Below, piece by piece: positions 4,502-26,680 of a stretch of DNA of 64,000 nt (positions within the stretch are counted from its first letter, which is position 1; every line of letters begins with the position of its first letter). Under the pieces are notes generated by a model. The model was not told where the DNA came from, searched no databases, and saw only the letters and a program-made list of their open reading frames with translations. The position numbers and the translations under genes were made by a program. The stretch is from a virus. Its lineage: Duplodnaviria > Caudoviricetes. The DNA lies in IMG/VR virus record IMGVR_UViG_3300008255_000098, one strand, 5' to 3'.

Positions 4502-4598
4502 AATCCAAAATAATAGAATAATAGAATAATAGAATTACCATTCTATAGACCGTCAGGCAGGAATTTTTTTCCTTCTATGAAGGACATAAAATAATAAT

Positions 4599-4723
4599 AC
4601 CGCCAGTTCTTGGCGGTTACATGTGTGGAGCTATAAATAAGACTTCTTCTTTACAAAAGAAGAAGCACAAAGTAGTGAAACCCGAAGCCTAACCCACCGC
4701 CCTAGCGTGGGTGAGTAGTTCAC
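4599..4723 (+). mobile_element. Orphan IS200/IS605 right end / omega-RNA-like module (type B1)
   Basis: GTGAAACCCGAAGCC..CCCAC..GTGGGTGAGTAGTTCAC, shared with 32882-32947. Confidence 0.7.
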
Positions 4724-4795
4724 AGGTTATTGGTGTAATGCGTAGCACAATGGATTCCAAACCCATTAGTTAGAGTTCGAGTCTCTAGTAGCCTG
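4724..4795 (+). tRNA. tRNA-Trp(CCA)
   Basis: AGGTTAT/GTAGCCT acceptor; loop TTCCAAA; TTCGAGT T-loop; no encoded CCA. Confidence 0.8.
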
Positions 4796-4865
4796 CTAAT
4801 AATGATAAAAGGTGGGAAACATCTGTCTGGCCAATAATATTGATTGGCTATAGGCCATATATTTT

Positions 4866-4940
4866 AGGATCATAGCATAATCTGGCTAGTGCTCTCCCCT
4901 GTCACGGGAGAATGTGTGGATTCGAATTCCACTGGTCCTG
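4866..4940 (+). tRNA. tRNA-Asp(GTC)
   Basis: CTCCC-CTGTCAC-GGGAG; canonical T-arm. Confidence 0.88.
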
Positions 4941-5069
4941 CTAAATTATCAGCATGATGGAGTAACAGGCAAATTGGCCTAAAATAACATGAAAATTGAG
5001 TTCGAGACGCTTATAATGTGTGGTTTTAGCTCTCGATGATGATAATTCCCCCATTTTATGATGGGGCAT

Positions 5070-8465: not shown

Positions 8466-8537
8466 AATTTCGCAAGCTAAAATCCAGGCAATGACTTTGA
8501 ATTATTTGAGAGTTGATGGTTCTCATGCGAAATTTAT

Positions 8538-8622
8538 ACCGACGTGGGGGAATGGCAGACCCGCTAGTCTAAGAAGCTAGTATAGCGAAAGCTGTGTGCG
8601 AGTTCAAGTCTCGCCGTCGGTA
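8538..8622 (+). tRNA. tRNA-Leu(AAG)
   Basis: Paralog of the Leu(CAG) gene with loop CTAAGAA; variable arm. Confidence 0.85.
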
Positions 8623-22819: not shown

Positions 22820-23092
22820 ATGATTAAAAAAAAATATGTGACAATTGCTGAAGGTACAGATTTTCGTACAATTGCAAAAATTATGACGACAAAAGGGTAT
22901 GTAATGAATCACGCAACCGCAAGGAACGTTTTGATTTCTGCGATCAAAAAAATACTAGCTCACTCTGCAAATGAGTTTGGAGTTAAAATTAGTCCTGAAA
23001 TGTTGAGTAAACTAGTTAAAGATCAAAGGCTTCATGGAGCTTTAGCGGACGTACTTTATAGAGTACAAAATCAACAAAAGGAAAACAAATGA
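22820..23092 (+). CDS. Small HTH-like protein, candidate detached sigma region 4.2
   Basis: DFRTIAKIM..NHATARNVLISAIKKI directly after the truncated sigma. Confidence 0.4.
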   Translation: MIKKKYVTIAEGTDFRTIAKIMTTKGYVMNHATARNVLISAIKKILAHSANEFGVKISPEMLSKLVKDQRLHGALADVLYRVQNQQKENK

Positions 23093-23330
23093 CAATCGAA
23101 GTTAAAAAACCAGATCTTCTTGCGGTAATAAACCGACGTGGCCGTACTTTAGAAGAATTTTTGGCAGAACTTGGGGTTTCTGACAGAAAAACTCTTGATA
23201 GAAAAATATCCTTATTAAAATCTCACTATACTGTAAGTGATACTTTTATAAAACAAGCTTATTTATTAGTTCCGAGTAAGCCAGTTGTAAAAATTGTAGA
23301 AGAGCCAGTGAAAATAGAAGCAGTAGCAGC

Positions 23331-23396
23331 GGGGGTGACTTCGGGGGTGACTTCGGGGGTGACTTCGGGGGTGACTTCGGGGGTGACTTCGGGGGT
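23331..23396 (+). repeat. 12-bp tandem repeat (GGGGGTGACTTC) x5.5, encoding (GVTS)n in ORF 23089-23487
   Basis: Five perfect units plus GGGGGT. Confidence 0.95.
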
Positions 23397-25693
23397 AGAA
23401 GACAAAAGTCAAAAAATCGAAGAACCTACCCGAACAAAAGAACGAAAAGTTGTTAGACAAAAAAAGTCTTCTAACAAAAAACAGTAGATAGATTAGATTA
23501 AATCTTTAAAAGTGCGGACAAGTATGGTAAAATGTTTAAATGGACAAACAAAATAAAAATCTAAGATTTACCGAAGGTAAGCTTGTGATGTATTCAAAAA
23601 AAAATACTCGTTCGGGACTTATCAAATATTTCTTACCAACAACAAATAAAAATAAATCTATATATAGTTATTTGCAGCGTGTAACAGGAACGGCACATAG
23701 ATATGTTGAAACATATGTTGATAACATGAAACGAGGAGTTCCGTTTTTGTTGATCGAAGACCCAAAATTAGTCAGCACGAAAGAAAAATATTTTTTATAT
23801 CAAGGTACAAATTCAGACGCAAATAGTCGAGCTAAAGGACAAATGTTTTGGAGAATTAAATTTTTATACAAAGAACAAATTTATGTGTCTTATTTAACTA
23901 GAAAGCAATATTCACAAGAGTTGGTTATTGCAGTTCTAGCTAGACTAAATAAGGACTATTCAATTGGAGGAAAAAACAAAACTATCTTTTAAAAAAGTTA
24001 AAGATCTTGGCAGGGTATGTGTCTTTCTAAGCGCAGAAACACTAAAAATAGCAGGAAATATAGCAGCTGCGCCATTAGCAGACCGTAAAAAAACTATGAT
24101 TTTTCCGCTAAATTTAGCGGCTAAAGCATACCAAGCAGTTAGTGACGGGTGGAATGCTTCTGTATGTAAACATATAAATTTACAGTTGGCCTCTTCAGGT
24201 ATTCACCCAGGCACAATTATTATTTCGCAAAAATCTATTATTGGTGTTCCAAACTCGTCTCTTTTACTTAGAGATAGAAAATATATTCTCATTCCAGAAA
24301 ATGAATATATTATGTTTTTGAATGTTGAACATAGCCAAATTAGTGATAATTTTTTGATTAAAGTGTTGTGGGGAACAAGAATCTTATTTATAAATTCACA
24401 AAAAGGAATTGAAACTTTTGAAGAAATATTTTCTTTAGCTTACGATGGAAAAACAAGAAACAAATTTTGATAAATTTATTATAGACAATTTTGGACTTTT
24501 ATTTTTAAAAGTCGGGATAGTTCCGGGAAGTATTTTAGTATGTGAAAAGCCAACAGTAATTTTATATAATTATGAAAATAAAATTAATGAAATAAACTTA
24601 TTAGAAAAAGACACGTTAGTTTTCTTAGGAACATTTGATAATTTTATTAGAAATAATATGTTTTTTTGGAGTGACGCTACTTTTTTAGGAATGATACATG
24701 GTAAATTTTACAATATTTTAATTTCAGATTTTCGGGCAAGAATTTTTAGAAATTTTGTTGTTTGGAAACAAGATAAATGATTAAATACAAAAGTAAAATA
24801 ATTTGTTTAACAACTCTTGCTACATTAAAACACGCCTATGGAATAGTGCCAGGAAATATTTTCTCTATTAGTGAAACCATCGAGTGCCATGAAATATGTG
24901 AAAAAATAAGCAAAGACCATATTCTAGAAACAGAAACTACGAAATTTATGGACAGAGTAGACGAAATACTTACAGCAGGCAAGTATATGATATTTTTAGA
25001 TATTGTTTTTGATCCAATCACTCATGAACATTTATTTTTGTTTTTACACCCAAATGGAATATATGGAAAAATTTGGAAGAAAAACCATTCGATCAGACAT
25101 TTAAAAGACTGGTTAACATGGGGAAAAGAAGAGAATAATGCCAGATAATCCAAGATATAAAAAAGGGGCACTGTGGCTAACGAGAACAAGCATACATGCG
25201 TTTTTAGACAGAGAACACAGTGAAAATAATGCTTTCTCTATTATTCCAAAAGGGGAATATGTAATGTTATTAGTTTATTTTTTGAATAAGAATTATTCTG
25301 AACATATTTCTATTTTATGGAACGAACATTTGTATTATGTTTATGATGTAGATACCGCATACCAATTTAACATTGATCCAGGACATCACAATACTAAACA
25401 AAGTTAAAATAATTTTAGTAGTAAATTAGTTTTGGCGCTATTATTATTCATGTGGCGCAAAACAAATACACTTTAGGAAAAATGTTTCAGGTGTTATCAA
25501 CTACATCAGTAATCACCACAAATCCAAATTGTTCACAAAATCGAACAATAACACACGTTGACCACAAAAAAATAGCAGTTGGGGAGATTTTATTATTAAT
25601 AGATTATTTTGATCTAGGAATATCAGGAATTTGGGTGTGGCTTTATTATGATAGTGTGGTATGGCAAGTGATGGAAAAAAATAATTTTAAGAA

Positions 25694-26515: not shown

Positions 26516-26571
26516 ACTGTTAACCTCCAATATAATTATCTTTGAGCAAAAAACAACAAGATTTAAAAATA

Positions 26572-26680
26572 CTGTCTGGTTCAGGAACTGAGTCGGACAC
26601 TAAACAAAACGGAATAAGGCGTTGCCACCATTAGGGCGAGTCTAAGACCTCCGAAACCCGCCCCTGGGCGGGTAGTTCAC
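26572..26680 (+). mobile_element. Orphan IS200/IS605 right end / TnpB omega-RNA-like module (type A2)
   Basis: CTGTCTGGTTCAGGAACTGAGTCGGACAC..GAAACCCGCCCCTGGGCGGGTAGTTCAC; near-identical to A1. Confidence 0.78.

Follow-up and report, generated by a model that had tools for sequence, protein, structure and literature searches.

Does a guide-RNA scaffold that ends exactly where a phage tRNA gene begins represent an RNA device, or the mark left by a transposon? This question is raised by a junction in a 64,000-nt stretch of a large phage genome (hereafter, the window), at which an earlier sequence-only reading had placed an omega-RNA scaffold directly against nucleotide 1 of tRNA-Trp. That reading had proposed that RNase P might separate the scaffold from its guide, that the unprocessed RNA might act against tRNA-Trp genes, or that the element might favour tRNA genes as insertion sites. 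From the analyses described below, we consider that the locus is most probably the immobile scar left when an ISGst2-like IS200/IS605 element inserted at its usual TTTAT target, and that it stands beside tRNA-Trp because of where the element landed. The phage was found in sequencing runs from aquifer and groundwater metagenomes. All ORFs of note in the window are on the + strand, and they include two class II aminoacyl-tRNA synthetases, NAD-pathway enzymes and an RNA ligase. Its RNA genes comprise 39 tRNAs called by ARAGORN, one more found by Rfam and a tmRNA.

The junction itself was examined with both tRNA-finding approaches. ARAGORN called a tRNA-Trp with a CCA anticodon at 4724-4796 on the + strand, and the Rfam tRNA family matched 4724-4795 at 47.6 bits, as compared with a gathering score of 29. 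The gene, which we place at 4724..4795 with no encoded CCA end, has the properties of a bacterial-type tRNA-Trp, i.e., a cloverleaf, the CCA anticodon, an A1:U72 pair and the discriminator G73 (the G at 4795), together with an acceptor stem of 7 bp (AGGTTAT / GTAGCCT). The A1:U72 pair and G73 are identity elements for TrpRS. Given the full acceptor stem, the A1:U72 pair and the discriminator at 4795, the A at 4724 is nucleotide 1 of the tRNA. TTCAC occupies 4719-4723 and its final C is the base directly before this nucleotide, the junction reading ...GTGGGTGAGTAGTTCAC|AGGTTATTGG... The reported abutment was thus confirmed by ARAGORN, by Rfam and by the sequence, and the position of a would-be omega-RNA guide is indeed the 5' end of the tRNA, corresponding to its first 16-20 nt.

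The origin of the scaffold was established from its relatives. A scan of IMG/VR and the JGI metagenomes with the 3' motif yielded 142 right ends of the family, all of which (142/142) finish in GTAGTTCAC and are followed by unrelated sequence. In 45 of the 142, an ORF of at least 300 aa (range 300-449 aa) ends 8 nt before TTCAC. The motif closes ORFs of 399-449 aa, and the HTH_OrfB_IS605, OrfB_IS605 and Cas12f1-like_TNB domains found in two such ORFs identify them as TnpB. One contig (L012) has the complete layout: a hairpin at the left end, then tnpA (on the opposite strand), tnpB and finally the right end. All of the distinct left ends (18 of 18) have TTTAT immediately beyond the conserved sequence. 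The TAM of ISGst2 is likewise TTTAT, and its wild-type TEM is TTCAC (Meers et al., 2023; PMC10055086). Taken together, the TnpB ORFs, the layout of L012, the TAM and the TEM show the repeat to be an ISGst2-like IS200/IS605 element. The likeness to ISGst2, an IS605-group element of Geobacillus stearothermophilus with TnpB2 and an omega-RNA, lies in motifs and architecture: TTTAT at the left end, a terminal TTCAC, a subterminal hairpin, a scaffold that overlaps the 3' end of tnpB, and a guide formed by the flank of the right end. Unlike ISGst2, the copy at tRNA-Trp keeps only the last 151 nt, without left end, tnpA or tnpB, and is lodged in a large phage.

This relic was delimited at 4573..4723 (+ strand) by local alignment and by a covariance model. 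In the alignment, 4573-4723 matches the last ~150 nt of four intact elements (L119, L073, L095 and L068) without a break, through stem 1, GGAGCTATAAATAAGAC, the middle hairpin, GAAACCCGAAGCC, the right-end hairpin and TTCAC. Its 151 nt consist of the last ~40 decayed codons of tnpB and the right end, which together make up a complete omega-RNA scaffold. The 71 nt between tRNA-Phe and 4573 (4502..4572, + strand) are a spacer in which no transposon homology was detected, their local alignment scores against the tnpB regions of four intact elements being no better than those of shuffled sequence. Between tRNA-Phe and the relic, at 4509-4532, AATAATAG is repeated three times in tandem.

The covariance model, R1, was built from 15 intact elements and contains 31 pairs, 13 of them with compensatory changes. 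It matched 4578-4723 over all of its positions 1-136, at 88.9 bits (E 3.8e-16). This score is below those of the intact core group (133-159 bits) and inside the range of intact sister subfamilies (54-92 bits; e.g., L006 88.5, L015 91.8, L023 54.5). Few of the 31 pairs are non-standard in the relic and all helices are kept. As judged by alignment and model, the tRNA-Trp copy is a complete, somewhat divergent omega-RNA scaffold, and the identity first proposed for it is borne out by homology and by a model derived from tnpB-bearing elements. Its start at 4599, as originally given, needs correction: the homologous scaffold begins at ~4573-4578, and 4599 is the start of the first stem only. The scaffold itself has no match in Rfam, whether by gathering or by E-value thresholds.

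The individual parts of the scaffold could be followed across the family. Stem 1 (ACCGCCA gttct TGGCGGT; 4599..4617, + strand) aligns with TCGGCAGGAACTGTCGA or TCGTCAGGAACTGGCGA of intact elements, and its helix is backed by compensatory changes across the family. Downstream, GTGGA (4625..4629, + strand) is predicted by RNAalifold to form the 5' strand of a long-range closing helix with the terminal TTCAC, columns 69-73 pairing with 160-164. Single-sequence folds give the same pairing, and covariation has no bearing on this helix since both strands are invariant in 15 of 15 sequences. The middle hairpin (CTTCTTCTTT acaaa AGAAGAAG; 4643..4665, + strand), which was defined by alignment to relatives, has as its counterparts CTTCT-GCAA-AGAAG, CGTTA-GTAA-TAACG and CTTTG-GCAA-CAAAG. 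It shows compensatory changes at four of five pairs and is longer than the relatives' hairpins by an in-frame 9-nt insertion. The subterminal right-end hairpin (ACCCACCGC ccta GCGTGGGT; 4692..4712, + strand) aligns with CCCATCGCC-TTT-GGCGTGGG of 100+ family members. From the family right ends, TTCAC (4719..4723, + strand) is the transposon-encoded motif (TEM), i.e., the right-end cleavage site, with which the element terminates. The former tnpB frame remains open from 4573 through the scaffold, with an early stop (TAA) at 4690-4692. The open frame and the in-frame insertion would fit divergence within a live gene, followed by recent truncation.

The scaffold also contains, at 4632..4639 (+ strand), the family consensus sequence TATAAATA, which equals the T4 late-promoter consensus. 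This match might suggest that the relic has been kept for the expression of tRNA-Trp, either because TATAAATA serves as a late promoter of the T4 type or because a structured leader modulates RNase P processing. In keeping with retention, the relic is identical across several independent assemblies; however, all of these represent the same phage population, so that their identity is uninformative on long-term conservation. Moreover, GGAGCTATAAATAAGAC occurs identically inside the tnpB codons of the intact elements L073, L095, L109, L119, L150 and L153. As TATAAATA is the consensus of intact elements on unrelated contigs, it was not acquired by the phage, and we ruled it out as an acquired late promoter. 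The tRNA clusters of relatives have no such module, and the other 39 tRNAs of the window manage without one. We therefore regard a role in tRNA-Trp expression as quite unlikely.

The remainder of the element is missing. There is no left end at the relic: within the window, the left-end motif and blastn homology to left ends were found only at 32634-32693. The segment 4574-4625 was considered as a candidate left end with TCTAT as its TAM, and was rejected when it aligned far better with the 3' codons of tnpB and stem 1. No tnpA adjoins the relic, and tblastn with the intact TnpB of L012 gave no match anywhere in the 64-kb window. Lacking a left end, the relic is immobile. Elements that consist only of an omega-RNA and depend on TnpB in trans are known in the IS200/IS605 family (PMC10055086). 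These PATE-like elements (Meers et al., 2023), like those on contigs L054 and L090, resemble the relic in being gene-less, with a full scaffold and right end. PATEs, however, retain their two ends and are movable in trans, and the relic, with only a right end at 4573-4723, is on its sequence a solo right end rather than a PATE. The mini-elements on L054 (1728-1937; 155.6 bits) and L090 are gene-less, ~215 nt long, and join a left end to a full omega-RNA scaffold; they are omega-RNA-only mobile units of the ISGst2-like family.

How, then, could a right end have come to touch the first nucleotide of a tRNA? Insertion of IS200/IS605 elements takes place 3' of the TAM and duplicates no target sequence, and the guide is the DNA beyond the right end (PMC10055086). 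It follows that a right end touching +1 of a tRNA needs only a TTTAT at -5 to -1. In the sequence of events that we favour, an ISGst2-like element of the tnpA/tnpB type would have inserted directly 3' of such a TTTAT in front of tRNA-Trp, the ancestral junction presumably having been TTTAT|AGGTTAT (TTTAT joined to AGGTTATTGGTG). With no target duplication, its right end would have been left in contact with nucleotide 1. A later deletion would then have taken away the left end and tnpA together with almost the whole of tnpB, leaving the terminal 151 nt, i.e., the omega-RNA scaffold. Because an IS605 right end turns whatever DNA flanks it into its guide, the insertion site alone is enough to make the tRNA 5' end the guide, which would be a by-product of the landing site, not a designed feature. 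Fusion of a scaffold to nucleotide 1 of a tRNA therefore needs no special mechanism.

Suitable targets are at hand in the window. The leaders of its tRNAs are T- and AT-rich, and the AT-rich TTTAT target resembles these T-rich leaders. At 8533-8537, a TTTAT lies directly against nucleotide 1 of tRNA-Leu(AAG) at 8538, and is a present-day target resembling an empty site. This is one of 44 intergenic TTTAT sites on the + strand, as delimited by a crude intergenic mask. Counting the site presumed to have been used at tRNA-Trp, the odds of abutment are ~2/45 (~4%) per insertion, or ~20% for at least one of five copies.

The number of copies comes from the 17-nt 3' motif, which occurs five times on the + strand of the window with at most 3 mismatches, as compared with 0.04 expected occurrences. 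The motifs end at 1139, 4723, 9301, 26680 and 32947 and fall into two subfamilies, one comprising the ends at 1139, 26680 and 9301 and the other those at 4723 and 32947; the scaffold subfamily of the tRNA-Trp copy is marked by GGAGCTATAAATAAGAC...GGGTGAGTAGTTCAC. The sister copy at 32647-32947 (~300 nt) is a left-end-to-right-end deletion derivative of the same subfamily as the tRNA-Trp relic. It has TTTAT at 32642-32646, a left-end hairpin at ~32664-32687, a remnant of the region upstream of tnpB at 32790-32815, and a shortened right end in which the scaffold is reduced to its last ~60 nt. The copies at 1004-1139 and 26552-26680 have the same left boundary (TTTAAAAA.ACTGTCTGG), which lies at the 5' edge of the scaffold. 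This common boundary argues for copies of one defined, if putative, unit over independent truncations. Deletions to the scaffold edge at these two places as well as at tRNA-Trp might point to selection for scaffolds, or to an ancestry among omega-RNA-only elements. Preservation of a complete scaffold is more than a long-dead relic needs, and the relic at tRNA-Trp may simply be young.

The sequence-only reading had counted three of six copies just upstream of tRNA or tmRNA genes, and had taken this to suggest an insertion preference or the use of tRNA processing. Two right ends do stand just before RNA genes, at 0 nt (tRNA-Trp) and 38 nt (tmRNA). The third copy does not hold, as 57389-57436 has only a stem-1-like hairpin (GTCTGGTTCAGGAATTGAGTCGGAC) followed by TTTTTTT, 5 nt before tRNA-Gly, and lacks both a right end and TTCAC; it resembles a terminator that may derive from a fragment of a relic. 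An RNA gene begins no more than 40 nt downstream of two of the five right ends, as compared with 9% of crude intergenic positions, which gives a binomial P of ~0.07; the true P is higher, because the crude mask overstates intergenic space. Among 136 related right ends from elsewhere, with 125 distinct flanks, not one was followed by a tRNA in the next 130 nt, in a search that detected the window junction as a positive control. Across these right ends we see no preference of the family for tRNA genes, and the proposals of insertion preference and of use of tRNA processing are not upheld.

An allele without the insertion was sought in the phage's own assemblies, in collection scans and among the relatives examined, and was found in none of them. 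The junction 35-mer had no match in IMG/VR, and a 23-mer of the tRNA-Trp had none in the JGI metagenomes, a collection that does not contain this phage. Seven assemblies with the neighbouring gene proved to be the same phage, and all three that reach the locus (L028, L030 and L031) carry the relic. In Logan, one contig of 419 nt spans 4616-5034 identically, and no contig of four further runs has a joint bypassing the element. Relatives that are nearest at the protein level (49-63% identity) arrange their tRNAs in another order. Their loci have no tRNA-Trp at the site, except for L026 and L027, in which the tRNA-Trp sequence is different. No copy of the scaffold was found in ~100 kb of tRNA-cluster DNA from relatives, which indicates a lineage-specific relic rather than a conserved accessory of tRNAs.

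These comparisons also bear on whether the tRNA-Trp entered the phage along with the right end, through recombination or through an imprecise excision that took the flank with it, in which case the junction would be older than its arrival in this genome. TnpA can take an alternative downstream TTCAC and thereby capture flanking DNA (PMC10055086), and the wholly different tRNA order of the nearest relatives, with this tRNA-Trp at no examined relative locus, would be compatible with such an import. There is, however, no TTCAC between tRNA-Trp and the next tRNA, and the 5' 19-23-mer of this tRNA is on no other contig in the collections searched. An imported junction is, in our estimation, a most improbable origin.

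The proposal that the scaffold guides against host tRNA-Trp genes was then set against genomes. The first 19 nt of the tRNA-Trp matched no tRNA in 185,579 species genomes, which speaks against this proposal. Seven matches of the 19-mer were obtained, all in a conserved coding sequence (KVIGVMRM.D.GE.DDKIIAV) without TTTAT, and six of the seven were in Bacteroidota MAGs (L038, L040-L044). The encoded protein looks like an inorganic pyrophosphatase. As TTTAT is missing upstream, the identity to this pyrophosphatase-like DNA is probably coincidence. Host tRNA-Trp was rejected as a target, the matches being TAM-less coding DNA only. Likewise, the first 16-19 nt had no second site in the window and none in IMG/VR.

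A broader form of this proposal is that the unprocessed scaffold-tRNA RNA is loaded by a TnpB encoded elsewhere, whether in the phage, the host or a co-infecting phage, and directs it to cut TTTAT-AGGTTATTGG... Its targets would be relatives with an uninserted tRNA-Trp locus (TTTAT-AGGTTATTGGTGTAATGCGT), and the result would be preferred inheritance of the tRNA region, an advantage that homing endonucleases confer on their own region in T4-type phages. The completeness of the scaffold, with all helices kept, is what such a role would call for, and the conserved 5' end of a tRNA would be a good homing target. A dependence on TnpB in trans has its precedent in the omega-RNA-only elements described above, and in the metagenomic mini-elements that join a left end to a scaffold. 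On the other hand, the 64-kb window has no tnpB, and no target with or without a TAM was found in the window, IMG/VR, the JGI metagenomes or the 185,579 genomes. In the predicted fold, moreover, the would-be guide is locked in the acceptor and D stems of the tRNA, and RNase P should remove it. We consider both action in trans and the proposed targets unlikely.

How the scaffold-tRNA RNA would be processed can be gauged from its predicted fold. As no terminator-like site was found on the + strand of the relic, transcription from promoters further upstream in the tRNA operon probably continues through it, and the relic would form a structured 5' leader co-transcribed with that operon. In this fold, the scaffold closes on itself through GTGGA and TTCAC and the tRNA acceptor stem is separate, giving two modules. 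It is a reasonable inference that RNase P should cut at 4723/4724 and release a scaffold without its guide, as the sequence-only reading had suggested. The efficiency of this cut might be altered by the helix that extends to -1 and by a possible C(-1):G73 pair. Disarming by RNase P is, however, largely moot, since there is no tnpB in the window. A literature search returned nothing relevant on natural links of omega-RNAs with tRNAs or with RNase P. In engineered tRNA-guide RNA arrays, guides are released by RNase P and RNase Z. The relic resembles these arrays in that its scaffold is joined directly to a tRNA and processing enzymes would set its end. In the arrays, however, the cut preserves the spacer, whereas in the relic the guide is 3' of the scaffold and would be removed by RNase P.

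A more far-reaching possibility is that the junction is a fossil, or still a tool, of RNA-guided homing into the phage tRNA cluster, in which the 5' end of tRNA-Trp would be both guide and target of TnpB, the element would spread among co-infecting phages, and RNase P would compete as a built-in off-switch. Such a switch would couple the arming of a nuclease to tRNA maturation. We hold this to be very improbable. A close parallel is SegB, a protein-only GIY-YIG homing endonuclease in the tRNA gene cluster of phage T4. SegB is a selfish DNA-cutting element among phage tRNA genes, with a target in the tRNA region of competitors, and an intact ancestor of the relic could have acted in this way. 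SegB, however, is intact, whereas the relic has lost its nuclease gene. If a partner TnpB were found, the locus would become a natural test of tRNA processing against guide-RNA maturation.

In our preferred reading, that of an insertion scar, the junction looks like an ordinary mark of transposition and not like a new RNA device, in an element family that is itself already known. The locus is a clear further instance of ISGst2-type TnpB elements that have entered a large groundwater phage and decayed to guide-RNA scaffolds. Two minor observations were made elsewhere in the window. At 56143-56215, a tRNA-like sequence was matched by Rfam only (33.4 bits), with no call by ARAGORN. At 23318-23396, a perfect 12-nt tandem array (CGGGGGTGACTT) lies in the ORF at 23089-23487.
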